From NCBI RefSeq assembly GCF_026210795.1, contig NC_089434.1, positions 4,340,001-4,404,000 of the forward strand: 64,000 bases of DNA, read 5' to 3'. Every line of letters starts with the position of its first letter. Position 1 is the first letter of the stretch. A model generated the notes under the pieces. That model had not been told where the DNA came from. It worked only from the letters and a program-made list of their open reading frames with translations, and searched no databases. Below, one piece after another: positions 11,897 to 63,467 of the stretch. The stretch is from Rhizophagus irregularis (Eukaryota). The position numbers and the translations under genes are program-made.

Positions 11897-12229
11897 TAAT
11901 TACAGCCAACAGAATATTCTTGTGTGTCAAAATTTCATATGATCAGATTTCATCATAAATGTTACAAAAAATTAAGTACTTTCAATAGAATCTTAAATGG
12001 AAGAGAAAACAAATAAATCATTGCTTATTCGATCAATGATAATCTTTCATTAGATAACATTTATAATAGTAATTTATGACTTAACTAATAAAAATTATAT
12101 AAATATCGATTATTTTCCTGTTAGCTTCGATATTGATTTTTCTTATTATTTATTGTTCATATATCATTTTAAATATATATACCAATATTCCTTTTTATAT
12201 TATTATTTTAGTCTTTATCTCTATTCATA

Positions 12230-13630
12230 ATGGTACAACTAGTTGAAGACGTTCTCTTGCTAATTTTCATCGAATTGCAAAATGATCCCGCTTCCTTATA
12301 TTCATGTATTTTAGTTAATAAAACATGGTGTCGAATAGCTGTACCTATATTATGGAAATATTTTTCCTATGCTTACAAAAACCCTTACAATCATAAACGA
12401 GAATCGCGTGAAAAACTTTACAATGTTATTGCGCATTTCTTACCAAATAGCTCAAAAGATAAATTGGCTAAAAATGACATCAAATTACCCTTAAATCTGA
12501 TTTCAAATATGTTATTGTTTAATTACATGGAATTTTTTACTCGTCTCACATCTGCTTTGATTGAAGATATGGCACGACTTTTAATTAAGGAGAATTCTAA
12601 TTATAAAATAAATTTGGTAGAGAATGAAATTTACAACTTAATTTTTAATAGATGTAAAAATATTAGGCATTTCAATTGGAATACTCAGGCACAATTATAC
12701 TTATGTCCAAATGCAGAAGAATTTTTTTCTAATATACGTTCATTAGAATTTAATTTTTTATTCATAACTCCAGTAATGTTACTTAAACTTGCTGTGATTT
12801 GTCAAAATATAACGGATCTTAAGATACACGATTGTGATGAAGACAGTTTAGATTTGGTTCTATTTATTAAAATGCAAAATAATTTGCGGTCTTTGAGTTT
12901 AAATTTTAATAACAAGGAAGAACAATACATACAATTAAGCAATATTATTGGTCAAAAAGCTGTTTTATTAAAAAAAATTTCATTAGGACCGGTGATTACA
13001 TTAATTCGACCTACGTTTTTTCCATCATTAACATATTTGCAATATTTGTTCCTAAATAATAATGATTGTGATTTATATGAGAGCGTGAACTGGCAAGAAT
13101 GGGAACACTATATAAATATGACCACTTTTCCATATCTTCAATACCTTAAAACTTTATATTTATTAAGTAGTATTGAATGTTTAATAATTGAAAGATCTGG
13201 AGAAAAAATTTTAGAAATTGATGTATACCATCCACTTAAGACCCAGGATTATCCAACTGAAAATAAAAAATTAATTAAAATGATCTCTCTACGTTGTCCA
13301 AAGATAATAAAGTTAACTTTGGACGTTGATCCTGATAATTTAGAAGAAATCAGTAATCTTCTTTCAAATTGTTCATTGTTGGAAAAAATATATTTTACAA
13401 CAAAAAACTATATATATCCTAATGGAGATAAACTACTAAAAATTATGAGCAATAAATCACCTGCTACATTGCGAGAATTTTCATTTGTAGACAAATGGAA
13501 TTTCTCATTAAAAGGATTAGAGTCATTTCTTGAAGATTGGAAAAATAAAAATCAATTTCCAATCAAATTTACTCATTATTACAAGGAATTCCCAAAAAGT
13601 TTTTGTTGGGTTTTTGTAAAAAAAATGTAA
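12230..13630 (+). CDS. F-box domain / LRR (RNI-like) protein
   Basis: 466-aa uninterrupted ORF; F-box LVEDVLLLIFIEL..SLYSCILVNKTWCRIAVPILW followed by LxxLxL repeats. Confidence 0.85.
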   Translation: MVQLVEDVLLLIFIELQNDPASLYSCILVNKTWCRIAVPILWKYFSYAYKNPYNHKRESREKLYNVIAHFLPNSSKDKLAKNDIKLPLNLISNMLLFNYMEFFTRLTSALIEDMARLLIKENSNYKINLVENEIYNLIFNRCKNIRHFNWNTQAQLYLCPNAEEFFSNIRSLEFNFLFITPVMLLKLAVICQNITDLKIHDCDEDSLDLVLFIKMQNNLRSLSLNFNNKEEQYIQLSNIIGQKAVLLKKISLGPVITLIRPTFFPSLTYLQYLFLNNNDCDLYESVNWQEWEHYINMTTFPYLQYLKTLYLLSSIECLIIERSGEKILEIDVYHPLKTQDYPTENKKLIKMISLRCPKIIKLTLDVDPDNLEEISNLLSNCSLLEKIYFTTKNYIYPNGDKLLKIMSNKSPATLREFSFVDKWNFSLKGLESFLEDWKNKNQFPIKFTHYYKEFPKSFCWVFVKKM

Positions 13631-40800: not shown

Positions 40801-42254
40801 ATTTGTATTATAAATGGGCTGGAATTTGGAAAGCTCATCGGATGGGAATGCGCGTTGGAAATTTTGGATTACAACGAGATTCATTATCTGCAGCTGGACC
40901 CCTTTATGCAAGTGCGGCAAAATCAAACTATACAACGGCTATTGCACATTTTCTTGCCACTATAGCAGCTCATCCCCAATTAGAAGAAAAATTAAATCAT
41001 TGTAGTGCTTTCAAAATTCCACATGATATTGATGGTGGTCTACATCACGTTTGTTTTGGATTTGATGAGGCCCTTGAGACATTTGGAGTAAGGTTTATCA
41101 AAGGAAATGTAAGTGGAAATGTTATTGACGAAAAAAATCTTAAAAATCAAATAAAAGCATCCCAAAGTGAAAGAGAAAGAATAGATCTTTTAATGAGTGA
41201 GTATATTAATGATAATTCAATTTCACATAGTGAAAGGGCAATTAAATTACGCCAAGAGTCCTTATGGGAGCTCGTTAACGATCTAGTAGCAATATTTGAA
41301 ATGGATAATCCATTATCCCACCAATTATTTCAAAAATATAAACCTACAGAAATTCATCAGGAGGGGCTTGATCGTCTTATTGCATGCTATCCAAATGGAT
41401 TAGAAAGAATTAAAGGAATATATCGACAGGAAGTTTTAAAGATAGAAAATAGAAATACTAAAGGTAGAAGAGCGGTAGGAGTGGTTAGAACGAAAGTAAA
41501 AGATTACAATAACCAAAAAAAATCAATCAATCAATCTGTTACCATGTCTTTGCAATCACAACAAAGAGATACAGATGAAATTTTGAATGAAGACTACCTA
41601 CCCGATACAACCAATCCACAACTTAAACAAAAAAAGCATCGAACTACTAAGGAGAAGATGGAAATACTTTCTGCATTGAAAGTATATAAAGATAAACTGC
41701 CAGACGATGCTATTTCTTCTGTTTGTGAACATTTGTCAGAAATTTGGACTAAAAAAAAAGTAAGGGAGTGGTGGAATTATCATAAGGACAAATAAAATGC
41801 GCTTTTTTCCTAATAAAAAAATATTTATTTGTGTTAGTTATATGCTTAATTTAACTAATATTATTGCAATAAACCAAAAATTCTGCAATTGTCATAAAAA
41901 TTACTATCCCAATCACCTTTTTACGCTTAAGTAACTTGATCGGGCGTAAAAAATTGCATATAATTAGTAATATAAAATAAAGTTTAACGTTTGTTTAAGG
42001 GTTGCATCTGGGAGATAAAACCAAAAAAATAGGAGAAAAGCAGCTATAATAAAGTTTTTTGTAAAAGTATTGTATTATGAAAAAAAACATTGAAGAGTGT
42101 AGACGAAAATATAAAAAAAAAGGTTCGTTAAAAATTTTTGCCACGTTGCATAAAAAAAAATCACGTTGTATTAATCATGACTATTTAGGTATTTTATTTG
42201 CCGATCAATTTTTAATTAGTGATCAACACGTGAAATGACATTTCCGTTGACTGA
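37842..42254 (+). mobile_element. Transposase-bearing DNA transposon, Academ-like
   Basis: TIRs tcagtcagtggaaatgtc / gacatttccgttgactga flanked by tata on both sides (the TSD/TIR boundary is ambiguous); encloses one large gene. Confidence 0.75.
38308..41795 (+). CDS. Large Academ-like DDE transposase with Cys/His-rich region and C-terminal homeodomain-like segment; one frameshift
   Basis: Frameshift at ~38552, GC-AG intron 39360-39429, GT-AG intron 40714-40793; motifs IIDNIDF, IVADEAIF, LLGQWH, KSNY, FDEALET. Family assignment is from motif recall only. Confidence 0.65.
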
Positions 42255-44789: not shown

Positions 44790-45024
44790 CACTGGTCAAA
44801 AACCAATATATCGGGTAGCAGATATGTATCAGATATGTACCCGATATGTGTAGTATTAATGCAGAAAATCGGGTACCCGATATGTATATGATATGTAAAT
44901 GATATGTATATATTTACACATATCTTACACATATCGGGTACCCGATTTTCTGCATTAATACTACACATATTGGGTACATATCTGATACATATCTGCTACC
45001 CGATATATTGGTTTTTGACCAGTG
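44790..45024. mobile_element. CACTG (CACTA/EnSpm-type) MITE, near-perfect palindrome
   Basis: cactggtcaaaaaccaatatatcgggtagc ... gctacccgatatattggtttttgaccagtg; 3-bp TSD AAG. Confidence 0.92.
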
Positions 45025-45858
45025 AAGAGAAAAAAGAAACAAAAGAAAGAAAAGGGAATGAAAGAAAAATAAAGAAATAGGGGAACAAGGAATAATGATG
45101 TGAAAATAAATAAAGCCCAAATTAAAATAAATGAATCAAAACCCAAACATAAAGAAAAATCCAACCAAAAGAAAGAAGCGATGACCAAAATGATAAGAAC
45201 CTGAAATAAAAACCAAACTTAAAATTAAGGTGTATACTAAAGGGTAAATATTTTATTAATTAAATTTTTCACGCATGTTTCTATATTAAAATTCAGGTCT
45301 AATTACAGGTCTATATATACATAAATTTCCAAACTAAAAATGTTTAACATATGCTACATATTCTATATATACTATATGTTCCATATATACTACATGTTTT
45401 ATATATCCCATATATGCTACATGTTCTATATATTCTATATATTCTATATATCAGACATACACAGGTCGAAAGCTAAAAAATCGGGCATATACCCTATTGG
45501 TAACTATTAAACTAATAGGTTAGCCAAAAATTAGTAATCAATAGGGCATATACCCAATTGATAACTATGTAAAAATTTAGGCTAACCGGATTGAAAGGAT
45601 TTATTAATTTAAATAAATTAGGTAATTATTCAATAGTCATCATTTGGTTTATTACTATATGTGAAACTGAATCCAATAGGAATAAACCGATTGGTAACTA
45701 TAAATTAATCCATTGGTCTATAATACCATACATATATATTACATTATTTTACCGAATTTATAATATTTGACAATACATTTGATATGAATATTCACTAAGT
45801 ATACTTGGCAAGTATAAAATAAAATAACTGATTTATTACAATTTATTAATAATAGAAA

Positions 45859-47038
45859 TTATAAATGGAACTTCCTATTAATCGGTACTACTGCCATATA
45901 AGTTTTCGCCTTCCGTCTGCTGTTATTGTTATTGTTATTTGTTCCGATTGTAAAATTAGTAGGAATAAACTGGCTATAAATATTATGAATTGGAATTATA
46001 CTATCACGAGACATTTCATAAAATTCATTAAGTTTCCAGAGTTCAATATTAACACTGCGGTCATCGTCCTGTTCAGCTCGGCAGTAAAATCTAATTCGAT
46101 GATCATTAACCGGTAGGTACCATTTGACGTAAGCAAGTTTGTGCATTCTTTCACCAATAGTTAGAAGTCGCAATACATGCTCGAAATAAAATTGCACCAT
46201 TCCTGGGTATAATTCTATCAATTCGTTATCTTGGGTAAATTTTGCTAAAATATAAGAATTTTTCTTATATCGAGGTGCTAGCACGGATCCAAAAATTTCA
46301 GCTGCCACTCGAATTCTTCAGCATTGATTAATTATTGGTTGAACAACTACATACGAATCATTCTGTAAACCTCGACTGATCAGATTTGACATGGAGCCAA
46401 ATTCAACATCCATCTTTTCACCATAAACTTCATTATAATAAGTAATCAACTGTTCATACAAATTGTCGGGTAAATCAACACGGTTTTTAATTGGACTTAA
46501 TAAATTGCCCAGATAAATTTCACTGCCAGTGATCGTATCTTCTAATTCGCTGCAGAAAATCCGTTTGAACTGCACCAATTCTTCTGATCTGAGGTCATCA
46601 TAAGCTGCTAATGAACCAGTTGTTTGCCGAGGTTCAATTAACTTAAGACCATTAACAAGCTTCTAATTGCCCGATTGAATAGATATAAGATCATTGATTC
46701 TGCAATTCTGCACAATAATTCTTAGCAATTCCGGTTCAATATATCGTTTTGAATTGGGATAGGAACCTAAAGGGCAAATTTATGATATATTAATTAAAAT
46801 CCGAGACATTCATTGTTAAAATATTTACCTAAGATCCCATTCATTCGTTCAAATGAATAACACCAAAAAGAGTATATTGGACCATAGTCACGACAGCATT
46901 CGGCTATATGCAAAGAAAGGTGTATATTTGGTGTAATTAAATTTTCACCATAATGTTCTTCAATGAGTTGACCAATTTTGAGTAATCTGTTATGGGCCTC
47001 ATTTATTCATTGGTATTAATGATTCGGCAAACCAACAA
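45859..47038 (-). pseudogene. CACTA/EnSpm transposase, C-terminal part
   Basis: LVCRII..HLSLHIAECCRDYGPIYSFWCYSFERMNGIL, intron ~46766-46828, GSYPNSKRYIEPELL..; contains stops and frameshifts. Confidence 0.85.
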
Positions 47039-48189
47039 CACTGGTCAAAATTAATACTATCGGGTACCTATCGGGTACCTGATATGTGTACAATATATGT
47101 GATATATGTGTATGATATTTAACAATGCTACACATATCAGGTACCCGATATGTGTAGTAGAAATGTAGAAAAACGGTGACACATTATGTACATATCACAT
47201 ATACATCTTACACATATCGGGTAGTTAAATATCGGTCACATATCATAGACTTATTGGGTACCCGATATATTATGATATATATCATAAAGATATCATACAG
47301 ATATCATACAGATATCAGACGGATAGATATAGGATAATGATTTCGTATTAATACTAGTAGATTTATAATTTAATTCAGGCAAAAAAATTATAAAATGCAA
47401 TCATAATTTATATATTTTTTTAATTTTAATTCAAAACTTTATTACAATTTAAATTTATTTACACTTTTTAATTAAAAAAAAACAATTATACTAATTATAC
47501 TTGAATACTTGAATAAATATATATAATATATAACTTCTACTAAAAGTAGCATAAAAATAAAATCACTTGTTTGCTTATACCTGTTTGATTATTTAAAAGA
47601 AGCATTAATGATAAATATATTAGTGAGAGAAAAGAGAATGTTATTAAAAAATATTAGTATAGATATATAAATATAGAAAATATTAGTAGAAACATTAGCA
47701 GAAAGAAAAAGTTAGTAGAATAAAAAATGTTAGTAGAAAAAGAACGTATATCAGTAGTAATATAATATTAATAGAAAATATTAAATAGTAAAAATGTTAA
47801 TATAGTAGAAAAAAATAATAAAAAATATATTAGTAGGAGTATTAGTAAAAGAAAAGAAAGAAACGAAAAAAAATGGTAGAAAAACATTAATAAAGAAAAG
47901 AAATATTAGTAATATATACCTTTTTATGCATTTCTAGATATAACAAATAAAAAAAAATATAAAAATATGTATTTCTGGATATATTAAATAGATAAAAAAT
48001 TGTGTTTTTAAGTAAAAAAAAATTGAGAACGAAGAAAAGGTTTTAATAAGATAAACAAAAATGCGAAATGTAAATATTTAAATCATGTGATCACATGATA
48101 ACAATATTACGTAACGTAACTTATCACATGTTATTTTATAGCCTGAATACATTTATAATTAAATTTGGTAAAATTATGTCGTAAAACAA

Positions 48190-48826
48190 AAATTTCTCAA
48201 TCCAAATGACCCCTTCGATTAAAAAATTATCAAAAAAAAATCTTTCCAAATGAACCCTTAGAAAATTCTCTATCAAAAATGCCCTAAGCGATTCCCTTAA
48301 TTAAAAAATACAAAAAATAATTTTCCTAAACGAACTCTTAGAAATTTCTCTATCAAATGATACCTTCAGTTAAAAAATTCTCAAAAAATAATTTTTCCAA
48401 ACAAACTTTTAGAAAATTCTCTATCAAAAAAATTCTCTATCAAAAAATGTTCCAACAGTCCCTTTGGTTAAAAAATTCTCAAAAATAATCTCTCCAAACG
48501 AATCATTAGAAAATTCTCTATCAAAAAATGCCCTAAACGATCCCCTTAATTAAAAAATTCAAAAAATAATTTCCCTAAACACACTCTTAGAAAATTCTCT
48601 ATCAAAAAATGCCCTAAATGATTCTTTTAATTAAAAAATTCTCGAAAAACCATTTCCCAAACGAACTCTTAGAAAATTCTCTATCAAAAATGTTCCAAAC
48701 GTTCCCTTTAGTTAAAAAATTCTCAAAAATAATCTCTTCAAACGAATCCTTAGAAAATTCTCTATTAAAAAATGCCCTAAATGATCCCCTTAATTAAAAA
48801 ATTTAAAAAATAATTTCCCTAAACGA
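48190..48826. repeat. ~81-bp satellite, left part
   Basis: Repeated ttagaaaattctctatcaaaaa...ttaaaaaattc units, cut by the LTR at 48827. Confidence 0.9.
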
Positions 48827-50028
48827 TGTAAACGGTCGAATATCAAGCACGAAAAGATGATAAAATTCAACTACCAAACGTAATTGCCAAATGTTAAGAA
48901 CGAACAAATTAATTATGAATTGGCGTAGATGGATAAATAATTAGCCGAAAAGGATAAACATTTAGGAAGAGTAATGATCTACATGATGTAATATTTATCA
49001 AATGATTGACAAAGAACCAATAGGATAAATAGAGTCGATCAATTGGGGCTTAGCAATCTTTAACAATAAGAACGATAAGAAAGAATAATTATAAGCCACA
49101 AAAGATAGGTTATAAGCAAAACACATAAAGCAAGTTAAAAGAACATATAAAATAATGTCAGAAAGATTAAAGAACATAAAATAATATAAAAGATAATATA
49201 AAAAGATAGTATAAAGATGGAACGTAAAAGATAATATATTAAAAAGAACATATATAAAAAGATAATATATTAAAAAGAACATATATAAAAAGATAATATA
49301 TTAAAAAGAACATATATAAAAAGATAATATATTAAAAAGAACATATATAAAAAGATAATATATTAAAAAGAATATATAAAAGATAACATATTAAAAGATA
49401 GCGTATTTAAAATATAGATAGCATATTAGAAAGATAGTTCAAAGATAATATGTAAAAAGAATATAAAAGATAGTATATAGATAGAATAGAAAGTAGCATA
49501 AAATTTGTATAAATAGAGAACGGAATTCAAAGTAATTCCACAGTTCTCATCCACAGAACTCAATAAAAATATAAGTTTCATTTAATTATGTGTTAGTAAA
49601 GTTTAATGTTAATTAAAGGTAATAGGTTCGCCCTAAACTTTAATTAATGTTCGCTTAATTAATTTTAATTAAATAAATGAAAATTTTAAGATGAATTAAA
49701 TATATGTTTTTGAAAAGTAATAATTCGTAGCGAGAGCTATCGAATTTTGAAATTAAAGATAAAAGTGGATATAATTTGGGAAAATTTAGAGAAGTTAATT
49801 TTATTTTATATCGTTCAACGTTTTATATTACTAACGCTATTTATGTTATGAACCAAGAATGTTGTTGTATGTTGTTCGTTGATTATGTTGTTTGTTAATT
49901 ATGCTGTTGATTATTCGCTTGTTCATTTATTTGTTTGTTCGTTCGTTCATTCGTTCGTTCGACCATGAGAATGCCCTTTCGATGTGGCAACTCTGTAAAT
50001 TGATGACAGAGGGAATTGGGGGATCTCA
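48827..50028 (+). repeat. 5' LTR (1202 bp)
   Basis: tgtaaacggtcg...ggggatctca; contains a 31-bp tandem repeat with one more copy than the 3' LTR. Confidence 0.95.
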
Positions 50029-50030
50029 TA

Positions 50031-50045
50031 TGGTGCATGCTCGCA
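50031..50045 (+). promoter_or_regulatory. Primer-binding site
   Basis: TGGTGCATGC.. begins 2 nt after the 5' LTR; TGG is complementary to tRNA CCA. The tRNA identity is not determined (Gly is a guess). Confidence 0.7.
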
Positions 50046-51518
50046 AGAAAGGAAATGATCATCATCACATGATTATTATTATAATGAATATGAAAATTTA
50101 ATTTCGTTAGTAAGTCACTGATAGGTATTATTAATCAATATTTTATTTTAGAATTTATTTTTAGATTTCAGGTTTTAACGAGTTCAAAAGGAACCAATAA
50201 ATCAATAAGGATTTAATCGAGTTAGAAACTTGAAAAGGTGAAAGATTGGAGTTTGTTGTTGTGCAAGTAATCATTTAATCGATAGAAAGCACAAGAATAT
50301 TTCTTTCGGGAATAAAGTACCTGAGAAATTTTATAAGGAGATGTAGAAGCGAAAGATGAATTTTGGAATAAAGATTAATAATGGGAGAACACCAATGTAT
50401 TATCTGGGGTTCATCTGTGTAGTATGGGTTACCTCTAAGCTTGAATTTTGGATAAATGCTCTAGATTGGAAAATTTTTATTCTTCGACATTAAGGATTAT
50501 AACGTATGGGTTACGTCAAATCTGGATACCCAGCTCAATAATGCGCAAATTGCTTTGGGGACGGGGAACGAAAATTGTAAAGACACCTACTATCAAGAAA
50601 CATTGAATGGATAAAATGGGACAAACCTGTAAACTATCATGCTTTTACCCAATGGGAAAAAGATAGAGATAAGTCCAGTATAGGTCCACCAATTTGAGGA
50701 AAGATAAGTTGGTTTAGATGAGTTTTATGGATAGCTGATGACTTTTGAAACTGGATTTTGGAAGGTTAGATTCACCCGTTAAGAGACGAGTCAGCCAACG
50801 AAAGAAGAAAAGATGGATATGTTGTGTTGTTACAGGCTTTAGGCTACATTTCAGATGAGGATCCTGGTGTAGTGTGCTAAATCACGTTTTCATTACAACG
50901 TTCCGTTGAAAGAAGATAACATAGAAGGATATTTACACATTAACGAGCCGTATAATGAACATTACGTACAGTATTTAATAATAGAATAAAATCCGGAAAG
51001 AAGGACATTCGTTTAAAAAGGATATTTATTTAAAAGAAGAACATTTATTTGAAAAGAAGAATATTTATTTGAAAAGAACGACATTTTGCGTACTATAGAT
51101 TAATTTATATAATATAGAATATATAGTAAGAAGGATTTATGTGGACGATAAGAAAGATGGAAAATTCGCAAACTTTAAAAGTTATGAAAATTTTGGAGTT
51201 TGTGATATGTGATATGTGAGATTATGGATCTTGGTGACAAGAGATAAACTTTGTGGAGCAGTAAAAACCTCCGCAGTCTGAGGAGATCGTGGACCTAGAA
51301 TAATTTTTGGAAATTTTGAGGCGCAGTAAAAATTAATAGTAAAATATGGCATAGTAAATATATAAAACCGAAAGATGGAATTTAAAGATTGAAAGAAGCA
51401 ATCTATTTAAAGATAAAAGAATGTTTGGAAGATTGAAAATAGAAACGATAAGAGTGAAATATATATATATAAAAGGAGGTGAGATTTTAGTTAAGATTCT
51501 GGATGAACGATTACAACG

Positions 51519-52829
51519 ATGGAATGGTATGAAACTTGGAGGGTTGATTACGAAAACCACAAATTAAGACATGACGAAAATATCGGAAATGTAGATATAG
51601 ACGAATTAAGAGGAGAAAATATAACATGTGAAATATGTTATCCAATAAGAAATACACCAGAAGTTTTCAAGAAATTTTGGAAAATATTGCAAAAATTTGA
51701 ATATACGATAAAAGATTATAACGCAGAAACTATAAGAGCGTTATTAAATTTATTAAGTATAGATAGTGAAGAAAGAAATAATTATACAAAAGGAAGGACT
51801 AGAGATGCATTAGATGTAATGGTCGAATCGATAAGATACTTGAAACAACCAGTATTAAGAGAAAAAGGATTAAAGATAATAATAATAGTAATCGTGAGAG
51901 ATTGTATAGAGAATGATAAAGAAGATGAAACAATGGACAGATTAATAGGGAACGAAGAATTAATAAGATATGGTTATATTTTGGAAAATTGGGATGTGAA
52001 TATAAGATTTGGGGAATTTTATGAATGGTATAAAGAAGCTATAACAGATTTTATAGAATGTAAAGATAGCACTATTAGAAGATACAAAAATATATTGTAT
52101 GAGGAAGCAGAATTAAAAGAAGATGAGTCAATAGAAAAAATAGAAGCGTTCAAACAAAAGATTAGATCGATGTTGAACACAATGTACGTAAAAGGTCATG
52201 GTGGAGGAATTGCGAAAGAAGTAATTGAAAAAGTTTATGATAAGATTAGGGGGTTTGAACAATTAAATATAGATGAAACAGATAGTGATGACACACCAAG
52301 AAGTTATACTATAACAGAAACAGACGATGGGGAAGAAGAAAGTTTACCAATTAGTAAAAATGAAGAAATGTCAGATGAGGAATCTGATGAATCTAATGAA
52401 TCTAATAATGTTGAAAAAACAGAAACAACAAAGATATTCAAAGAAATAATTAGAATGGATTTGAAAAGAATGGGTTATGATGTAGAAATAACAGAAATTG
52501 AAAGAATAAGAAAATTTGGAGTAACCGCAAAGATAATAACAACGTACGAATTTATGAAGAAATATTTAACAATATGGAATCTTGAAGATGAAGAATTAGA
52601 TGAACAAATATTACAATGGAGAGTTGAAAATACAAAAGAATGCGAAAGATGTGAAATTGAAAGATTAAAGAAAGAATTTAAAATTGGAGAAGAAATTTGC
52701 GTAGAATGCGAGAAAGATGTTGAAAAAGAAGATCCAACGGATGACGAAGAGGAAATGGAAGAGGATATAAAAAAACCCGAAATTGGCTCAAGTAAAAAAC
52801 CAAAAGTAAAGAGAAAAATAAAAAATTAA
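51519..52829 (+). CDS. Extra retroelement ORF upstream of gag, unknown function
   Basis: 436-aa open frame inside the element; H-x3-H..CxxC near the N-terminus, CERC..CVEC near the C-terminus, acidic tracts, basic tail KKPKVKRKIK. Confidence 0.75.
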   Translation: MEWYETWRVDYENHKLRHDENIGNVDIDELRGENITCEICYPIRNTPEVFKKFWKILQKFEYTIKDYNAETIRALLNLLSIDSEERNNYTKGRTRDALDVMVESIRYLKQPVLREKGLKIIIIVIVRDCIENDKEDETMDRLIGNEELIRYGYILENWDVNIRFGEFYEWYKEAITDFIECKDSTIRRYKNILYEEAELKEDESIEKIEAFKQKIRSMLNTMYVKGHGGGIAKEVIEKVYDKIRGFEQLNIDETDSDDTPRSYTITETDDGEEESLPISKNEEMSDEESDESNESNNVEKTETTKIFKEIIRMDLKRMGYDVEITEIERIRKFGVTAKIITTYEFMKKYLTIWNLEDEELDEQILQWRVENTKECERCEIERLKKEFKIGEEICVECEKDVEKEDPTDDEEEMEEDIKKPEIGSSKKPKVKRKIKN

Positions 52830-52885
52830 AGGAAGTACCTATAATACCAATAATACCAGCACCACCAATAAAACTGAAGATAACA

Positions 52886-54622
52886 ATGGCAGTAACAAGA
52901 GATGAATTCAGAACAGATATAAGAGCAGTAACGAATACTATGTATGGTCATGATATTGGGCCAGATTGGAACAATTTAGCAGTACCACCAATAACATTGA
53001 CAGGATTACAAGGAGAAGTTCAAGCGAATACTAATGCAATAGGAAATTTAAACGCAAATAGGGGAGCTATTGTGGAAATACCAGCATTTTATGGTACCAG
53101 TGGAGAAGATCCAGAAGAATGGGCAGATAAATTTGAGGAGACATTTACAGCGAATGGTTTAGGGAATGATGATGCACAGAGATTTAGAATAGCAAAAGCG
53201 AGATTAATGGGAGGAGCAGCAGATTGGTTAAAGACTGAAGGAGTAAATATTGTCGATTGGAATGTTAATGGAGATCATAATTTAAGATTAAGAGAAAGAA
53301 TAATTGGAAAGTATGCAAGTGATGAAATTAAAGATAGATGGCTAGAACAATTAGAAAAGATTAGACAGGGAGACGAGAATGTAACTCAATACCTTACGAG
53401 ATTTAAGTATATGTTAAAGAGAGCGGGAGGTGATGCAGCAGTAGCAGCAAATCAGCAAAAGAGAATTTTTAATAGAGGATTAAAACCAGACTTTACTAAA
53501 GACGTAGTAATGGGAAATCCAGCAGATTTAAACGCAGCATTTCAGATAGCAAAAAACGTAGAAAGAGGTTTAGAAGCATTAACAGATAAAGTACAACCAA
53601 AAGAAATTAATGATGAACAAAGAAGACAAGGACCTATTGTTCAAGGGAATGTAAGGAATAATAGAGAGGTAAATGTAGATGAATTAACAAGCAGTTTTGC
53701 GAAGTTACAAATTAAGATATTAGAAGATGAGAATGAAAGATTAAGAAATTTAGCGAGTCAGAGTTATAGGCAATTGCCACAAAGAAACCAACCAACACAA
53801 AGAAATCAACCAATTCAAAGAAATCAGTCATTCCAAAGAAGGGTACTGACATGTTTTACATGTGGTAGAATTGGTCATTATTCAAGAGAGTGTCCGGAGA
53901 AAAGAAGGAATGTAAGAGTGAATATGATGGACGAATACAATGACCAAGAGGAATACGATTATAATGGATATGAATGTGAGGAACCACAATACGGTGAAAT
54001 GTATTATACACAAGGTTATTACGATGATTATGAAGATAGGGAATTAAATTACTATAATGAGTTATACGCAAAAGATAACGCAGTAAAACCAAGAAGACAA
54101 TCAAGAAGGACGAATCCAATAGTAGGATATAAAAATAATAATGAAGAAGGAAATCTACAAGAAGAATTAAGAGAGGCAGGAAATAGGATGGATGATAGAG
54201 AAATACCAAGTGGAACAACAGGATACACGCCTGAATGGACAGAACAAAATAATGTATACAAAGATAGTCAAAATTGGGACAATCCAATAGGACCGGAAAA
54301 TTATAATTATGGTCATCGACCTATGACAAAAGATGGAAGATTTTATAAACCAATGTTCACAAAAGGAGGCAAAGTATTCTACCCCGGAATGCGACAAGAC
54401 GAATCTGGAGAATGGGCTAGAACAAAGCCATCAGGAACAGGAAAACCCAGAGTATATGGACCGAGATTAACAGATGAAATACCACCTTACGATATTGTAG
54501 GAGACGTAAAAAATTGTAGAGCAAATATAACATATGGACAATTAATAAATGAGAATACTAAGTATCATAAGCAATTGAGAGAAGGAACATATAGACCAAG
54601 GAGCATAAATGAGAAAAATTGA
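52886..54622 (+). CDS. gag: Gag
   Basis: FYGTSGEDPEEW, IRQGDENVTQYLTRF (major-homology-like), zinc knuckle CFTCGRIGHYSREC. Confidence 0.92.
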   Translation: MAVTRDEFRTDIRAVTNTMYGHDIGPDWNNLAVPPITLTGLQGEVQANTNAIGNLNANRGAIVEIPAFYGTSGEDPEEWADKFEETFTANGLGNDDAQRFRIAKARLMGGAADWLKTEGVNIVDWNVNGDHNLRLRERIIGKYASDEIKDRWLEQLEKIRQGDENVTQYLTRFKYMLKRAGGDAAVAANQQKRIFNRGLKPDFTKDVVMGNPADLNAAFQIAKNVERGLEALTDKVQPKEINDEQRRQGPIVQGNVRNNREVNVDELTSSFAKLQIKILEDENERLRNLASQSYRQLPQRNQPTQRNQPIQRNQSFQRRVLTCFTCGRIGHYSRECPEKRRNVRVNMMDEYNDQEEYDYNGYECEEPQYGEMYYTQGYYDDYEDRELNYYNELYAKDNAVKPRRQSRRTNPIVGYKNNNEEGNLQEELREAGNRMDDREIPSGTTGYTPEWTEQNNVYKDSQNWDNPIGPENYNYGHRPMTKDGRFYKPMFTKGGKVFYPGMRQDESGEWARTKPSGTGKPRVYGPRLTDEIPPYDIVGDVKNCRANITYGQLINENTKYHKQLREGTYRPRSINEKN

Positions 54623-55135
54623 CTACACTCAGTGGGAACTATGAAAAATGAGGAAAAAATAACTACAGCAATGAGAACGGAATTAGAAGTTGAAGATCAA
54701 TTAGTGAATGTAATAATAGATACTGGAGCAGCAGTAAGCGTGATAACAGATAAATTAAGAAGAAGATTGAATATACCTATATTTGGAAAAAGTAAATTTA
54801 GATGTACAATAGCAAATGGGCAAAAGATAGTAGCATTAGGAAAGGCAAATATAACTTTAAGATACAAAGATGAATTAGAGATATTAAAAGAAGTTGAAGT
54901 GATCAATTCAGAAGAAGATGATCTAATTTTGGGAAATGACATATAGAAGTTGTATAACACAAAAATAAATTTTGAAGATCATACCTTAAGAATAGAAGAA
55001 CAGGGAGAAATAATAACGATTCCAGTAGGATATGAAAGAGAAGTAGCATATGAAAGTGAGAAGAGTGAGGACGATGAAGAATATGAAAGTAACGATGAAG
55101 AAGAGGTATTCAAAATGCACCAGAATTTTAAATAG
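54623..55135 (+). CDS. Retroviral-type aspartic protease, in frame with gag, with an internal TAG
   Basis: VIIDTGAAVSVI and LILGND motifs; TAG at 54944-54946, after which the same frame continues to 55135. Confidence 0.85.
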
Positions 55136-55170
55136 AAAGTCTTGGCTCTGAAGAGAGAGAGACGGAAAAG

Positions 55171-57252
55171 ATGCTCGAACCAAGTGAAAAATTTATGCAA
55201 AAATTAAGTATAGGGAAAGTAGAAGAACCAATTTGGGAAAATATGGTAAAATTACTATTAGAATACCAAGATATTTTGGAATACGATGAGGAAATAGAAG
55301 GAAGAACGAAAGCAGCGCAACATGAGATAAAAATAAAAGATGGGGTAGAACCAATAAAGCAAAGAAGATATAAAGAAACAGATGAAAAGGCAAAATTTAT
55401 AAGCGAAGAAGTAGATAAATTGTTAAAACAAGGAAGGATAAGGAAATCAAAAAGTCCATGGAGTTCACCGGTTACATTAGCAGGAACAAAAACGGGAAAA
55501 TATAGATTCTGTATTGATTACAGAAAGTTAAACAAAATAACTATAATGGATAGTTTTCCTTTACCAAGAATGGATGAATTGTTAGACAAATACAGAAAAG
55601 CAAAATGGTTTTCAAGTATAGATTTAGCGGCAGGATTTAATCAGGTAGAAATGAAAGAAGAAGACAAAGAAAAAACAGCATTTGTATGTTCGAAAGGATT
55701 GTTTGAATATAATGTAATGCCGTTCGGTTTAACGAATGTACCAGCAACATTTCAAAGATTAATGAATGAAATATTAGAAGAATACATAAACGATTTTGTA
55801 GTAGTATATATCGATGATATTATGATATATTCAGAAAATTTAAAAGACCATATGGAACATGTGGAAAAAGTATTAAAGAAGTTACAGGAGAATAATTTAA
55901 TAATAAAATTAAAGAAATGTAGATTTTTGGAAAGAAACATAGAATTTTTAGGACATATAGTAGGAAATGATGGATTAAGGCCAGACGATAAAAAGATAGA
56001 AAAGATAAAAGAAATGAAGGCACCAACAACAGTGAAAGAAGTAAGATCATTTTTAGGACTTTGTTCATATTACAGAAAATTTGTGAAGAATTTTTCAAAG
56101 ATAGCAAGACCAATAAGTGATTTGAGAAAGAAGGGAATACCTTTCATTTGGGGAAGAGAACAACAAGAAGCGTTTGAAAAATTGAAAGAAAAGTTAATAC
56201 AATATCCAATATTGCGACATCCAGATTGGAAGAAAGAATTTCTATTAATAACAGATGCATCAGGAAAAGGATTAGGTGCAGTATTAAGTCAAAAAGATGA
56301 AAAAGGAAAAGAAGTAGTAATAGCATATGCAAGTAGAAGCTTATTACCAGCAGAAGAAAATTATCCGATAACAGAATTGGAATGTTTAGGAATAGTTTGG
56401 GGAATTCAACATTTTCATAAATATTTGATCGATAGAAAATTTAAAGTAATAACAGATCACAATGCATTAAAAGGATTAATGAATGCAAAGATACCAAAAG
56501 GAAAAAGAGCAAGATGGGTGATGGAATTACAGCAATATAATTTTGAAGTAATACATAGATCAGGAAAAGAAAACACGAATGCCGACGCATTAAGTAGGTT
56601 ATTGAAGATAGTAGAGGATCAACCAGAAATAGTAATAATCGACAGAGTAGATGGATTAGGAAAAACAAGTATAGTACAAAATTTAATTAGAGAATGGGAA
56701 AAACAAGGATTAAAAGTAAGATTCAATACCTATAAAAGGAGAAGAAAAGATAAAGATGAATTTTATGAATCAAAGATGGAGACGGAATGGAAATTCAGAA
56801 AAGAAGTAGTGGAACAAATAAACAGAAGAATGTTAGAATATGATGAAGATACAGATATAATAATTTTAGACAAATCACCATATTGTGAATATTATTATCA
56901 AAAGACGAAAAGTTTTGACAGAGGATTAATTACTCCACATGGAAATCATGAGATGGAAAAAGAAATATTCAGATTGAAAGAAACAATAGATAAATCTATA
57001 GTGATATTTTTAGAAAAAGATGGTGATGTATGTTGGAAAAATTACATCAGAAGAGAAACGAAGAAAACGGAAAAATCATCATATCCAACATTAAAGAAGG
57101 ATGAATATTTGGACATGGTTAAAATGTTTGAAGAAAATCAGAGCGTGTACAAAAATACCAAAAGATACAGTCGAGTAAAAGTTAAAAATGACGATAATAG
57201 CTGGAGAAAAGTATTTAAAGAGGTGGAGAAATGGAGAAAAGCACAGAACTAA
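55171..57252 (+). CDS. pol: Reverse transcriptase-RNase H fused to a P-loop nucleotide-kinase-like domain
   Basis: RFCIDYRKLN, MPFGL, YIDD, TDASG, ELECL, NADALSR; then IVIIDRVDGLGKTS and ILDKSPYCEYYYQ. Confidence 0.92.
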   Translation: MLEPSEKFMQKLSIGKVEEPIWENMVKLLLEYQDILEYDEEIEGRTKAAQHEIKIKDGVEPIKQRRYKETDEKAKFISEEVDKLLKQGRIRKSKSPWSSPVTLAGTKTGKYRFCIDYRKLNKITIMDSFPLPRMDELLDKYRKAKWFSSIDLAAGFNQVEMKEEDKEKTAFVCSKGLFEYNVMPFGLTNVPATFQRLMNEILEEYINDFVVVYIDDIMIYSENLKDHMEHVEKVLKKLQENNLIIKLKKCRFLERNIEFLGHIVGNDGLRPDDKKIEKIKEMKAPTTVKEVRSFLGLCSYYRKFVKNFSKIARPISDLRKKGIPFIWGREQQEAFEKLKEKLIQYPILRHPDWKKEFLLITDASGKGLGAVLSQKDEKGKEVVIAYASRSLLPAEENYPITELECLGIVWGIQHFHKYLIDRKFKVITDHNALKGLMNAKIPKGKRARWVMELQQYNFEVIHRSGKENTNADALSRLLKIVEDQPEIVIIDRVDGLGKTSIVQNLIREWEKQGLKVRFNTYKRRRKDKDEFYESKMETEWKFRKEVVEQINRRMLEYDEDTDIIILDKSPYCEYYYQKTKSFDRGLITPHGNHEMEKEIFRLKETIDKSIVIFLEKDGDVCWKNYIRRETKKTEKSSYPTLKKDEYLDMVKMFEENQSVYKNTKRYSRVKVKNDDNSWRKVFKEVEKWRKAQN

Positions 57253-57312
57253 AAATATAGGATACATAACAAAAATAACAAATTTAGAAGTAGAATCAAT
57301 TAAAGAAATATT

Positions 57313-58557
57313 ATGGGAGAAAATAATTACAAGAGTATAATAGACAATATTGAAAAAGAGAATAAGTATGAATTGAAAGAGGGAATTTTATATAGAGTGA
57401 AAGGACAAAACAAATTTAGAGTAATCAGGGATTTTGAATACGAAGGATTAATGTATATGATGCATGATAATGAATTATCAGGACATTTTGGGATAGAAGC
57501 GACATTAGATAGAATAAAAGAAAATTATTGGTGGAAAAATATGAAGGAAGATGTAGAAGAATATGTAAAGACATGTTGGAATTGTCAGATGAGAGGAAAA
57601 CCAAGAGGAAAGAACGAATTAACGTCAATAAAGATAAATGAACCATTCGAGATGATTGGAATAGATATAGTTGGACCATTAAAAGAGACAGAAAAGGGAA
57701 ATAAGTATATTGTAGTAGCAATGGATTATTTTACAAAATGGCCCGAGGCCGCACCACTAAAAGAAGCTACGGCTAAAGAGGTAGTAGAATTTATTTGGAA
57801 GGACATAATTTGTAGACATGGGTATCCAAAGAAAATAATTAGTGATAGAGGGACTCACTTTAACAATAAAATGATGGAAGAATTAGTAGAAAGATGTGGG
57901 ATAAATCATAGATTAAGTACACCATATAGGCCACAAATGAATGGTTTGGTCGAAAGATTCAATAAAACTTTATGCGAGGGATTAGCCAAATTAGGAGAAG
58001 AAAATTGGGATAAACATATACCATCTGTATTATTTGCATATAGAACAAGGAAGCAATCATCAACAAAAATTAAACCTTTTTACGCGACATACGGAAGGAG
58101 AGCAAAACTACCATTAGATAAGGATGAAAATAAGATAACATTAGCTGATAGAGTAAAAGTACTAATTGAGGAGCTACCGGTAATAAGAAGAAAAATAAAA
58201 GAAAATGTGAAAGAAGCTCAAGAGAAACAAAAACAACAACATGACGAAAGAGGAATTAGAAAACCTAAATTTGAAATAGGAGAAAAAGTATTATTATATG
58301 AAGCATGGAGAGAGAAACAATGGTCTGGAAAATTGCAGAACAAATGGAAAGGACCATATTTAATTCACGAAGAATTTGGAAACGGAGCATATAAACTCAA
58401 AGAATTAGACGGAAGAATATTGAAAACACCACAGAATGGAGAATGGTTAAAGAAATTTTATAATCGGGAGAGATTTACACCAAAAATAGTAATTAAAGGA
58501 AAAGAGGTATTCGATAAGGGGAGTTACACATATCACGTAATATTCATTTTATTATAA
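57313..58557 (+). CDS. Integrase (HHCC, DDE core, GPY/F), separate ORF
   Basis: H..GHFG..CWNC, GIDIVGP, SDRGTHF, NGLVERFN, KWKGPY. Confidence 0.93.
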   Translation: MGENNYKSIIDNIEKENKYELKEGILYRVKGQNKFRVIRDFEYEGLMYMMHDNELSGHFGIEATLDRIKENYWWKNMKEDVEEYVKTCWNCQMRGKPRGKNELTSIKINEPFEMIGIDIVGPLKETEKGNKYIVVAMDYFTKWPEAAPLKEATAKEVVEFIWKDIICRHGYPKKIISDRGTHFNNKMMEELVERCGINHRLSTPYRPQMNGLVERFNKTLCEGLAKLGEENWDKHIPSVLFAYRTRKQSSTKIKPFYATYGRRAKLPLDKDENKITLADRVKVLIEELPVIRRKIKENVKEAQEKQKQQHDERGIRKPKFEIGEKVLLYEAWREKQWSGKLQNKWKGPYLIHEEFGNGAYKLKELDGRILKTPQNGEWLKKFYNRERFTPKIVIKGKEVFDKGSYTYHVIFILL

Positions 58558-58699
58558 ACCTTACCCCCCCCTCCTGTTAGATTTCATAACCAATCAAATT
58601 ATAATATTTATAAATCATATGATTTAAATAAGTGTAACGTAAAATTTTAACTACCCCCTCCCCCCCTATAATAATTACATAATATGTGTAAGCTCCCTA
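58516..58699. mobile_element. Small MITE-like inverted repeat (PIF/Harbinger-like) at the integrase 3' end
   Basis: aggggagttacacatat ... atatgtgtaagctccct with taa on both sides and internal C-runs; composition differs from the purine-rich element strand. Confidence 0.55.
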
Positions 58700-58784
58700 A
58701 GACCCGAGTTCGATTCGATTAAAATTATTATGGATAAGACACGAGTTCGATTCTATTAAAGTTATTTGTGAGGTCACAAATAGC

Positions 58785-58794
58785 GAAGGGGGGA
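58785..58794 (+). promoter_or_regulatory. Polypurine tract
   Basis: gaagggggga 3 nt before the 3' LTR. Confidence 0.85.
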
Positions 58795-58797
58795 TAA

Positions 58798-59968
58798 TGT
58801 AAATGGTCGAATATCAAGCACGAAAAGATGATAAAATTCAACTACCAAACGTAATTGCCAAATGTTAAGAACGAACAAATTAATTATGAATTGGCGTAGA
58901 TGGATAAATAATTAGCCGAAAAGGATAAACATTTAGGAAGAGTAATGATCTACATAATGTAATATTTATCAAATGATTGACAAAGAACCAATAGGATAAA
59001 TAGAGTCGATCAATTGGGGCTTAGCAATCTTTAACAATAAGAACGATAAGAAAGAATAATTATAAGCCACAAAAGATAGGTTATAAGCAAAACACATAAA
59101 GCAAGTTAAAAGAACATATAAAATAATGTCAGAAAGATTAAAGAACATAAAATAATATAAAAGATAATATAAAAAGATAGTATAAAGATGGAACGTAAAA
59201 GATAATATATTAAAAAGAACATATATAAAAAGATAATATATTAAAAAGAACATATATAAAAAGATAATATATTAAAAAGAACATATATAAAAAGATAATA
59301 TATTAAAAAGAATATATAAAAGATAACATATTAAAAGATAGCGTATTTAAAATATAGATAGCATATTAGAAAGATAGTTCAAAGATAATATGTAAAAAGA
59401 ATATAAAAGATAGTATATAGATAGAATAGAAAGTAGCATAAAATTTGTATAAATAGAGAACGGAATTCAAAGTAATTCCACAGTTCTCATCCACAGAACT
59501 CAATAAAAATATAAGTTTCATTTAATTATGTGTTAGTAAAGTTTAATGTTAATTAAAGGTAATAGGTTCGCCCTAAACTTTAATTAATGTTCGCTTAATT
59601 AATTTTAATTAAATAAATGAAAATTTTAAGATGAATTAAATATATGTTTTTGAAAAGTAATAATTCGTAGCGAGAGCTATCGAATTTTGAAATTAAAGAT
59701 AAAAGTGGATATAATTTGGGAAAATTTAGAGAAGTTAATTTTATTTTATATCGTTCAACGTTTTATATTACTAACGCTATTTATGTTATGAACCAAGAAT
59801 GTTGTTGTATGTTGTTCGTTGATTATGTTGTTTGTTAATTATGCTGTTGATTATTCGCTTGTTCATTTATTTGTTCATTCGTTTGTTCATTCGTTCGTTC
59901 GACCATGAGAATGCCCTTTCAATGTGGCAACTCTGTAAATTGATGACAGAGGGAATTGGGGGATCTCA
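58798..59968 (+). repeat. 3' LTR (1171 bp)
   Basis: Near-identical to the 5' LTR, with a handful of substitutions and one 31-bp unit fewer. Confidence 0.95.
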
Positions 59969-62760
59969 ACGAACTCTTAGAAAATTCTCTATCAAAAATG
60001 CCCTAAATGATCCTTTTAGTTAAAAAATTCTCGAAAAACCATTTCCCAAACAAATTCTTAGAAAATTCTCTATCAAAAATGTTCCAAACGTTCCCTTTAG
60101 TTAAAAAATTCTCAAAAACAATCTCTCCAAACGAATCATTAGAAAATTCTCTATCAAAAATGCCCTAAGCGATCCCCTTAATTAAAAAATACAAAAAATA
60201 ATTTCCCTAAACGAACTCTTAGAAAATTCTCAATCAAAAATGCCCTAAATGATCCTTTTAATTAAAAAATTCTCAAAAAACCATTTCCCAAACAAATTCT
60301 TAGAAAATTCTCTATCAAAAATGTTCCAAACGTTCCCTTTAGTTAAAAAATTCTCAAAAACAATCTCTTCAAACGAATCATTAGAAAATTCTCTATCAAA
60401 AATGCCTTAAGTGATCCCCTTAATTAAAAAATACAAAAAATAATTTCCCCAAACGAACTCTTAGAAAATTCTCTATCAAAAATGCCCTAAATGATCCTTT
60501 TAGTTAAAAAATTCTCAAAAAACCATTTCCCAAACAAATTCTTAGAAAATTCTCTATCAAAAATGTTCCAAACGTTCCCTTTAGTTAAAAAATTCTCAAA
60601 AACAATCTCTTCAAACGAATCATTAGAAAATTCTCTATCTAAAATGCCCTAAATGATCCTTTTAGTTAAAAAATTCTCGAAAAACCATTTCCCAAACAAA
60701 TTCTTAGAAAATTCTCTATCAAAAATGTTCCAAACGTTCCCTTTAGTTAAAAAATTCTCAAAAACAATCTCTCCAAACGAATCATTAGAAAATTCTCTAT
60801 CAAAAATGCCCTAAGCGATCCCCTTAATTAAAAAATACAAAAAATAATTTCCCTAAACGAACTCTTAGAAAATTCTCAATCAAAAATGCCCTAAATGATC
60901 CTTTTAGTTAAAAAATTCTCAAAAAACCATTTCCCAAACAAATTCTTAGAAAATTCTCTATCAAAAATGTTCCAAACGTTCCCTTTAGTTAAAAAATTCT
61001 CAAAAACAATCTCTTCAAACGAATCATTAGAAAATTCTCTATCAAAAATGCCCTAAGTGATCCCCTTAATTAAAAAATACAAAAAATAATTTCCCCAAAC
61101 GAACTCTTAGAAAATTCTCTATCAAAAATGCCCTAAATGATCCTTTTAGTTAAAAAATTCTCGAAAAACCATTTCCCAAACAAATTCTTAGAAAATTCTC
61201 TATCAAAAATGTTCCAAGTGTTCCCTTTAGTTAAAAAATTCTCAAAAACAATCTCTCCAAACGAATCATTAGAAAATTCTCTATCAAAAATGCCCTAAGC
61301 GATCCCCTTAATTAAAAAATACAAAAAATAATCTCCCTAAACGAACTCTTAGAAAATTCTCAATCAAAAATGCTCTAAATGATCCTTTAAGTTAAAAAAT
61401 TCTCAAAAAACCATTTCCCAAACAAACTCTTAGAAAATTCTCTATCAAAAAATGTTCCAAACGATCTCTTGGTTAAAAAATTTTCAAAAATAATCTCTCC
61501 AAATGAATCCTTAGAAAATTCTCAATCAAAAAATGCCCTAAACGATCTCCTTAATTAAAAAATTCAAAAAATAATTTCCCTAAACGAACTCTTAGAAAAT
61601 TCTCAATCAAAAAATGCCCTAAATAATCCTTTTAGTTAAAAAATTCTCGAAAAACCATTTTCTAAACGAATTCTTAGAAAATTCTCTATCAAAAATGTTC
61701 CAAACATTCCCTTTAGTTACAAAATTCTCAAAAACAATCTCTCCAAATGAATCATTAGAAAATTCTTTATCAAAAATGCCCTAAGCGATCCCTTTAATTA
61801 AAAAATACAAAAAATAATTTTCTCTAAATGAACTTTTAGAAATTTCTCTATCAAATAATACCTTCAGTTAAAAAATTCTCAAAAAATAATTTTTCCAAAC
61901 AAACTCTTAGAAAATTCTCTATCAAAAAAATTCTCTATCAAAAAATGTTCCAATGGTCCCTTTGGTTAAAAAATTCTCAAAAATAATCTCCCTAAATGAA
62001 CTCTTAGAAAATTCTCAATCAAAAAATGCCCTAAACGATCCCCTTAATTAAAAAATTCAAAAAATAATTTCCCTAAACGAACTCAGAAAATTCTCAATCA
62101 AAAAATGCCCTAAACGATCCCCTTAATTAAAAAATTCAAAAAATAATTTCCCTAAACGAACTCTTAGAAAATTCTCAATCAAAAAATGCCCTAAACGATC
62201 CCCTTAATTAAAAAATTCAAAAAATAATTTCCCTGAACAAACTCTTAGAAAATTCTCAATCAAAAAATGCCCTAAATGATCCTTTTAGTTAAAAAATTCT
62301 TGAAAACCTATTTCCCAAACAAATTCTTAGAAAATTCTCTATCAAAAATGTTCCAAACGTTCCCTTTAATTAAAAAATTCTCAAAAACAATCTCTCCAAA
62401 CGAATCATTAGAAAATTCTCTATCAAAAATGTCCTAAGCGATCCCCTTAATTAAAAAATTCAAAAAATAATTTCCCTAAACGAACTCTTAGAAAATTCTC
62501 AATCAAAAAATGCCCAAATGATCCTTTTAGTTAAAAAATTCTCAAAAAACCATTTCCCAAACAAATTCTTAGAAAATTCTCTATCAAAAAATGTTCCAAA
62601 CGGTCCCTTTAGTTAAAAAATTCTCAAAAATAATCTCTCCAAACAAATCTTTAGAAAATTCTCTATCAAAAATGCTCTAAATGATCCTCTTAGTTAAAAA
62701 AATAATTTTTCCAAACGGACTCTTAAAAAATTTCTCAAAAAAATCTATCTAAAAGTTTCT
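59969..62760. repeat. ~81-bp satellite with ~242-bp higher-order period, right part
   Basis: Three monomer variants start at ~59999, 60080 and 60161, and the first recurs at 60241 and 60483. Confidence 0.92.
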
Positions 62761-63099
62761 TAAATAAAATCCCTATTAAATATTATTCAAATGGACTTTT
62801 AAAATTTCTTAGAAAATTATTTATAAAAATTATCTAAAAAATGAATTTAAATAAAAAATTTTAGTTGAAACGGATTATATATAATACAGTACGTTGTACA
62901 AAATAAAAATCTTACGTATTAAAATTTACATATCGGGTACCTGATATGTGTAAGATAGATCAATGCCCGATATACAATATCAGTGACTAATAGCTTAACT
63001 ATCGGGTACCCGATATGTAAAAATACCCGATATTTATCCGATTAGCCACCGATATATAGGTGCCCGATATGTACCCGATAGAATTGATTTTGACCAGTG

Positions 63100-63467
63100 C
63101 AAGGAACAGGCTCTTACGAAATTTCCTAAAATTTCACGATCATTCACTGATAGCAAATCCCACATTATTGGTGTTGAATACACCAAAATGAAGGTTTTCC
63201 ACTGATCAGCAGTGAATCCAGAAAAACCTTCCCCTATCGATATTTTATTTGGAATTCGACCCATGTTGGCTGGCAGTTTAATAGCTTCCACTCATTTTTC
63301 CATAATTTTAAGATCGTCCTTAGATATTTTTCCTCCATCAATCCATAAACGTTTTACAATCCAGCTGGCAATTCCGAGAAATAAATTATGCATTGGGTCT
63401 ACGACGCAATGTCTGATTGGATTGAAGTAGGGTAATCTTAACGATTCTGTCCACCTAACAAGATTAT
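63100..63467 (-). pseudogene. CACTA/EnSpm transposase, middle part (continues at 47038)
   Basis: VRWTESLRLPYFNPIRHCVVDPMHNLFLG..GRIP..FTADQWK..GNFVRACSL; one in-frame TGA. Confidence 0.88.

Follow-up and report, generated by a model that had tools for sequence, protein, structure and literature searches.

A predicted P-loop kinase of the TMK/dNK fold as a conserved C-terminal domain of the RT-RNase H ORF in a Rhizophagus Ty3/Gypsy lineage

What is a kinase-like segment doing directly behind the RNase H of a Ty3/Gypsy retrotransposon, and is it a part of the element or an accident of one copy? The question is raised by a 64,000-nucleotide stretch of Rhizophagus irregularis DNA (contig NC_089434.1, positions 4,340,001 to 4,404,000; hereafter the window), for which a preliminary description had proposed a thymidylate kinase (TMK)- or deoxynucleoside kinase (dNK)-like domain in pol, between RNase H and integrase.

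The host of this segment is a complete, recently inserted Ty3/Gypsy LTR retrotransposon at 48827-59968, all features of which lie on the forward strand. Its TG...CA LTRs, delimited by alignment to each other (5′ at 48827-50028, 3′ at 58798-59968), agree at 1165 of 1171 aligned bases (6 differences) apart from one 31-bp repeat-unit indel, and the intact pair is bracketed by an equally intact 4-bp target-site duplication, with ACGA at 48823-48826 before the 5′ LTR and at 59969-59972 after the 3′ LTR. Together with a likely primer-binding site that starts with TGG two bases past the LTR (50031-50044), a polypurine tract (58785-58794) and the gene order gag-PR-RT-RH-IN, these features mark the element as Ty3/Gypsy; among the solved structures of the PDB its RT is closest to the Ty3 RT (E 2e-101), the next RT-type entry standing at 1e-67. 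About 1.5 kb (50029-51506) with no ORF of at least 100 aa separates the 5′ LTR from ORF0 (51507-52829, 440 aa), an extra upstream ORF that displays CxxC pairs and acidic tracts and has no Pfam match. It is followed by gag (52796-54622; Retrotrans_gag, Ty3_capsid and zinc knuckle), an aspartic protease frame (54623-55135), a 706-aa RT-RNase H-kinase ORF in a different frame that ends in TAA (55132-57252), and a separate integrase ORF (57304-58557, first ATG at 57313) with an H2C2 zinc finger, an rve core and a weak SH3 domain. The insertion site is an 81-bp satellite (48190-48826 and 59969-62620) with a 242-bp higher-order period.

Elsewhere in the window, ATCGGGTACCCGAT-type inverted-repeat clusters at 44790-47271 and 62927-63106, including a 107-bp inverted-repeat pair at 44790-45024 that is 97% perfect, are likely the ends of a DNA transposon. 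Broken ORFs at 38257-41792 (forward) and 45859-46662 (reverse) gave no Pfam match where tested, and pieces of TLDc, F-box-like, Sel1-repeat and protein-kinase genes were recognized by Pfam within 7077-7592, 12212-13627, 14956-17375 and 30431-31294; these families are expanded in, and typical of, arbuscular mycorrhizal fungi.

The segment of interest (56599-57252, with the domain core from 56623) begins immediately past the RNase H terminal motif NADALSR, in frame with RT-RNase H, and codes for 217 aa followed by TAA, so that the in-frame stretch of about 215 aa noticed earlier is confirmed, and both motifs quoted at that time are found in the translation. The P-loop lies at 56641-56670 and a DKSPYxEYxYQ motif, which aligns with the DR motif of TMK-like kinases, at 56869-56901. 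The proposed location between RNase H and integrase holds as a matter of position, but there is no continuous RT-RH-IN polyprotein that the domain would interrupt: the kinase ends at a natural stop and the integrase is an ORF of its own. The purine fraction of the kinase is 0.69, as against 0.66-0.69 in six other parts of the element, and its A3 is 0.53, as against 0.51-0.63; this composition, equal to that of the rest of the element, and a dN/dS of 0.07 bear out the suggestion of a shared codon style and long residence.

The window copy itself is damaged. An Arg in its P-loop (codon 56644-56646), suspected from the outset of being a disabling change, is indeed a private lesion: at position 56644 sister copies in three runs read G at 39487/39707, 399/399 and 2027/2027 of the summed contig depth, all three RNA reads have G, and Gly occupies the Arg position in 32 of the 34 aligned family members. 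Compared with the near-identical protein P0002, the window kinase has 9 substitutions in 217 residues, and two of them are Gly-to-Arg changes directly after a C, a pattern that fits decay at methylated CG; such methylation of transposable elements does occur in R. irregularis, according to the accessible part of PMC8647823. Moreover, the protease frame of the related locus L002 is open where that of the window copy has an in-frame TAG (54944-54946). Because of this protease stop and the Gly-to-Arg change in the P-loop, the window copy is likely dead as judged from its sequence.

The kinase is not confined to this copy. Searches of 151 candidates of 119-380 aa brought 55 homologues, and searches of 977 candidates of 388-1236 aa another 38, counts that include many near-copies and hence do not represent independent events. 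The 38 long homologues comprise 31 with an RNase H Pfam domain, four with integrase only, one with a zinc knuckle, one with NUDIX and one named RNase H-like that lacks a precomputed domain. Thus, the RT-RH-kinase fusion whose presence in other copies had been put forward as a check is found in 31 of the 38, and numerous independent copies and assemblies contain the kinase. Wherever a source is named, it is R. irregularis or R. clarus, and the proteins 94-96% identical to the window kinase derive from the former. Most of the kinase is covered by 127 of 241 proteins, of which 36 are linked to RNase H by motif; 34 of these 36 end no more than 7 residues from the kinase match (two of them being truncated). 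The kinase is the C-terminal domain of the RT-RH ORF, in the window and in its relatives. Other layouts also exist: in a cluster of 47 members the kinase is joined to the N-terminus of the integrase and not to the RT, and many proteins of 250-265 aa have it without RNase H, while a search of cluster representatives found no form longer than 1236 aa.

This distribution is accompanied by purifying selection. Relative to L002, the kinase has a dN/dS of 0.069, beside 0.066 for RT, 0.12 for RNase H, 0.116 for integrase and 0.148 for protease; relative to locus L001 the value of the kinase is 0.075, and overall it falls at 0.06-0.08 in three comparisons and at 0.18 in a fourth with saturated dS (Fisher p 4e-34 in the selection test). 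At about 0.07, like RT, the kinase is under selection, which answers the dN/dS check proposed earlier. It is present across families whose RT-RH regions are ~60-97% identical, and its identity to the window copy follows that of RT-RH in most of the 19 proteins compared; two apparently chimeric gene models break the trend (RT-RH 0.66, kinase 0.87), and over 36 pairs of nine diverged rows the rank correlation is weak (rho 0.29, p 0.09). Conserved throughout the family, the kinase is a regular component of a Ty3/Gypsy lineage.

What kind of kinase is it? The predicted model (pLDDT 88.9, pTM 0.86) has a five-stranded P-loop kinase core. With this model, VIA-align places the Staphylococcus aureus TMK (Z 16.1, rmsd 2.8, 179 aligned) and human dGK (Z 15.8, rmsd 3.2, 198 aligned) in a tie. 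Foldseek ranks the Giardia deoxyadenosine kinase best, with TMKs and dNKs next and the same two families again among its viral matches. The ten best fold matches among 48161 representatives are all TMK/dNK-type kinases; in this wide search a complex I subunit of the dNK fold stands at Z 13.2, adenylate kinases at no more than 12, PPK2 at 11.7, and PPK2, PSTK and Kti12 together at no more than 11.7. The predicted fold thus leaves TMK and dNK undivided. At the profile level the best match is PHROG 761, a phage family labelled thymidylate kinase, for all six members tested (E 1.7e-13 to 3.1e-10), with an alignment that spans most of the domain in five of them. A profile-profile comparison with 25 viral P-loop kinases and three search matches, a set chosen by its likeness to the retroelement kinase family, gave a probability of 99 and E 9e-18, with the DK of the retroelements aligned to DR. 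The P-loop kinase fold on which the original identification depended is, in the predicted model, of the TMK/dNK type.

Matches to curated families are fainter. Pfam Thymidylate_kin is detected at E<=0.01 in 31 of 36 aligned members, not including the window copy, which scores 14.2 bits against a curated cut-off of 27; the fragment P0118 reaches 27.9 bits, via its P-loop alone. None of six tested members attains the NCBIfam curated TMK cut-offs, 8 of the 36 match Pfam dNK at E<=0.01, and one weak NCBIfam match concerns PPK2 (E 0.0055). The best E in a sequence-only PDB search with the kinase domain was 0.39, and with the kinase profile the solved yeast TMK came at E 0.24. The Atlas placed the homologue P0016 mostly with phage clusters (0.94) and in part with clusters having TMK domains on fewer than one fifth of their members, which is to be taken as a lead only. 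FtsY and resolvase identities, also suggested by local sequence matches to the P-loop only, were rejected given the fold results.

The motifs point to a version of this fold with features of its own. All 34 members share D18, G21, K22, R67, K92, Y100 and R152, and the P-loop D, G and K together with R152, a likely lid Arg, are kept down to 22-33% identity. In all 34 the Arg of the DR motif is replaced by Lys (DK). Sequence alignments of the kinase family revealed neither the REP motif of TMKs nor the EP motif of dNKs, whose place is occupied by a basic NxFKRRR stretch. TMK-like features are an acidic residue in the P-loop and, at +8/+9 counted from the DR position, a Y-Q pair. E97 and Y100, on the other hand, share the spacing of D114 and F117 of the Giardia deoxyadenosine kinase, which bind the base (10.1101/2023.12.18.572228, as far as the text was accessible), and this argues against thymine specificity. 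The many invariant aromatic residues, the DK and the KRRR patch are unlike either canonical family. In sum, of the TMK hallmarks the family has the predicted fold and the acidic P-loop residue with GK[TS] but not the DR Arg, REP or a score at the curated level; of those of the dNKs it has the predicted fold but, in sequence alignments, not the EP glutamate or the ER/DR motif. The TMK/dNK-like motifs reported in the preliminary description therefore stand as to the P-loop and, in prediction, the fold, but not as to a canonical DR Arg; the domain is TMK/dNK-like by predicted fold and a canonical member of neither family.

The deeper relatives offer a view of its origin. When 1.84 billion representatives were searched with a profile, 72 matches emerged, 45 of them at E<=1e-10, and the most distant clear members include the NUDIX-kinase fusions P0088, P0113, P0114 and P0176. 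These are metagenome proteins with the DK signature, 31-46% identical to the window domain where tested, and in the first three NUDIX scores above the Pfam cut-off; a further search added 28 matches, mostly near P0113. The window copy has no NUDIX domain, but in many retroelement copies the roughly 30 residues that precede the kinase are colinear, and without gaps, with the corresponding part of the NUDIX fusions in the 16 rows shown. In the model of P0088 this pre-kinase region forms a strand, a short helix and a helix, the usual end of a NUDIX fold. Alone, the match of the stub to the NUDIX profile is weak (probability 3%, E 0.014), though it beats 100 of 100 column shuffles, and a fold search with the NUDIX-kinase model had only kinases among the matches listed. 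The linker between RNase H and kinase is 14 residues long in the window subfamily versus 84-90 in stub-bearing copies; in a quick kinase tree this subfamily nests within the stub-bearing copies (support 97), and the NUDIX-kinases lie outside a 35-row clade (support 85) in a topology with long outgroup branches that does not fix the root or two stub proteins. Many retroelement copies thus likely keep a remnant of NUDIX, and the simplest reading of these sequences would be the capture of a NUDIX-kinase whose NUDIX part was later eroded, in a series from the whole domain through a stub of 30-58 aa to none in the window subfamily. A NUDIX-thymidylate kinase fusion gene is present in a 199-kb viral contig (L004, 9905-11017). 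Pattern scans, which miss distant relatives, confirmed no family member in viral contigs or in prokaryote genome contigs; one contig scan (33 of 64 parts) yielded at least 26 weak loci, mostly P-loop-only, INPHARED two weak matches, and a metagenome scan with one protein query three loci, of which none encodes a NUDIX-kinase.

The way in which the ORFs are split points to translation by an unusual scheme. Directly after the gag TGA comes CTA, and the protease continues in the gag frame, both in the window (54620-54625) and in L002 (372-377), TGA-CTA being a known stop-readthrough context. The protease and RT frames differ and meet at a conserved TTTTAAATAG (window 55126-55135, L002 881-890), where a simple -1 slip hits a stop; RT may instead be reached through an intron ending at the AG of this junction, or by a restart of translation at a conserved Met. 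Public gene models seem to assume such an intron, and an intron-type arrangement has been described for Ogre elements (PMC9289625, in the part available). At the other end, kinase stop and integrase start share bases in L002 (TAATG, 3013-3018); in L001 (1040-1047) a short extra ORF begins two bases past the kinase stop, and in the window (57250-57315) the integrase ATG lies 60 bases past that stop, behind what is apparently a shortened remnant of the L001-type ORF. This direct succession of kinase stop and ATG suggests that integrase may be made by termination-reinitiation. Poly(A) reads cover the kinase at a depth of only ~0 to 5, too thinly to weigh much on either side. The poly(A) reads peak over ORF0/gag, at ~52350-52940, with a depth of up to ~160, and are likely from related loci, since most of them show 90-99% identity and many continue into other sequence.

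As to function, the reading we prefer, to which we give somewhat less than even weight, is that of a captured dNMP kinase that would support reverse transcription as the counterpart of the dUTPase of other retroelements. Tethered to RT-RH, and so travelling or packaged with RT, it would convert ATP and dNMP to dNDP close to where cDNA is made. Such an enzyme by itself would stop at the diphosphates, and a host nucleoside-diphosphate kinase would complete the step from dNDP to dNTP; a benefit would be expected when host dNTP pools are low. The predicted fold, PHROG 761, the intact P-loops of sister copies and the RT-like dN/dS speak for such a role, and we count against it the non-canonical motifs, the tie of TMK and dNK in fold, the E97/Y100 spacing, the scores below the NCBIfam cut-offs, the weak rank correlation with RT-RH, the weak stub-NUDIX profile match, the 47-member cluster fused to integrase and, for the little that it says, the low poly(A) depth over the domain. 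A dNTP-supply role also has to reckon with yeast, in which deletion of two RNR inhibitors came without a rise in Ty1 cDNA (PMC3002893, accessible part).

The same fold could serve other ends. The best Foldseek match, the tie of dGK/dCK with TMK by Z, the E97/Y100 spacing and the eight members that match Pfam dNK would all suit a salvage kinase that makes dNMP from deoxynucleosides, likely those with the amino-bearing bases dA or dC, and that would give the element a salvage route which fungi, as far as is known, mostly do without. Yet a basic KRRR stretch stands in place of the EP glutamate, the P-loop reads GxDGxGK and not GNIGxGK, and the TMK model is the better fit for 31 of 36 members, so that we regard this role as rather unlikely. 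Doubtful, too, is a target outside the bulk dNTP supply, such as nucleotides that are modified or damaged, the ends of nucleic acids or a signal in host defence, by which the kinase would edit pools or counter defence: the deepest relatives are fused to NUDIX hydrolases, the invariant DK, KRRR patch and aromatics are unlike those of canonical families, and the domain is kept on RT-RH, on integrase or as its own ORF, but the closest folds and profiles all belong to ordinary TMK/dNK enzymes, PPK2, PSTK and Kti12 lag behind these in Z, and nothing positive points to such a substrate. That the module does no catalysis at all, and is kept as a scaffold for nucleotide binding or for regulation of RT or translation, we judge improbable; the Lys in place of a catalytic Arg and the resemblance to the dNK-fold complex I subunit, presumably non-catalytic, would agree with this, whereas the strict invariance of the P-loop D, G and K and of R152 would not. 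Finally, the damage to the window copy and the low RNA depth could have hinted at a neutral passenger, at an insertion nested in the element or at an error of assembly, but such a reading is refuted by the dN/dS results and the intact LTR pair and target-site duplication, and with many independent copies and assemblies having the kinase we give it next to no credence.

Should the preferred role as a dNMP kinase be borne out, its implications would be considerable. We tentatively propose, as a possibility that we would not press far, that this is the first retroelement lineage with a nucleotide kinase of its own: a captured phage-like NUDIX-kinase, founding a new DK subfamily of the TMK/dNK fold, would make dNTP precursors at the RT and free copying in multinucleate mycorrhizal hyphae and spores from host S-phase pools, possibly via a salvage route that the fungus lacks. 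With the kinase, a small soluble enzyme, one could then test directly whether dNTPs limit retrotransposition. Databases automatically label some family members thymidylate kinase, and such labels in Rhizophagus or soil metagenome annotations can thus denote parts of transposons. Fixed extra domains in LTR retrotransposons are called rare (PMC9289625, in the part available), and the accessible portions of PMC5408684 and PMC6431247, which describe dUTPase, DEDDy, GDSL and other cargo, make no mention of a kinase; nor does thymidylate occur in those of PMC11952901, PMC8647823, PMC11075540, PMC3248453 and PMC8778642, supplements aside. In the literature outside Repbase, GyDB, subscription journals and supplements we found no report of a thymidylate or deoxynucleoside kinase domain in retrotransposons, and the domain is apparently undescribed.

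Several known systems provide points of comparison. With thymidylate kinases (PF02223, TIGR00041, PHROG 761) the retroelement domain has in common the predicted fold (Z 16.1), the GxDGxGK P-loop and a Y-Q pair that follows the DR position, but it has DK for DR, no REP, 11-12% structural identity and scores under the curated cut-offs. With the non-TK1 dNKs (dCK, dGK, Drosophila dNK and Giardia dAK; PF01712) it shares the predicted fold and the acidic +5 and aromatic +8 residues from the DR position, but it lacks the EP glutamate and its P-loop is different. The phage NUDIX-TMK of L004 has the same two-domain layout as the fusions described above, but its kinase is of the DR type and 24% identical, making it an analogue and not a demonstrated donor. 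The orchid Gypsy elements with an AlkB demethylase likewise bear a lineage-restricted, retained enzyme as cargo, though there, according to the part of PMC9289625 available, the enzyme has an ORF of its own near host genes and proved active in vitro, whereas here a predicted enzyme is fused to pol. A further parallel is with dUTPase, which retroelements are known to carry, as the preliminary description rightly pointed out. Ty3/Gypsy (Metaviridae) elements of basidiomycetes and bdelloid rotifers and the planarian Burro likewise have a nucleotide-metabolism enzyme fixed in pol (PMC5408684 and PMC6431247, accessible portions); in these, a pyrophosphatase lies between protease and RT, whereas in the Rhizophagus lineage a predicted P-loop kinase follows RNase H and ends the ORF. 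The dUTPase, the known nucleotide enzyme of LTR elements, removes a nucleotide; a selected kinase would instead show an investment in making precursors, as in large DNA viruses.
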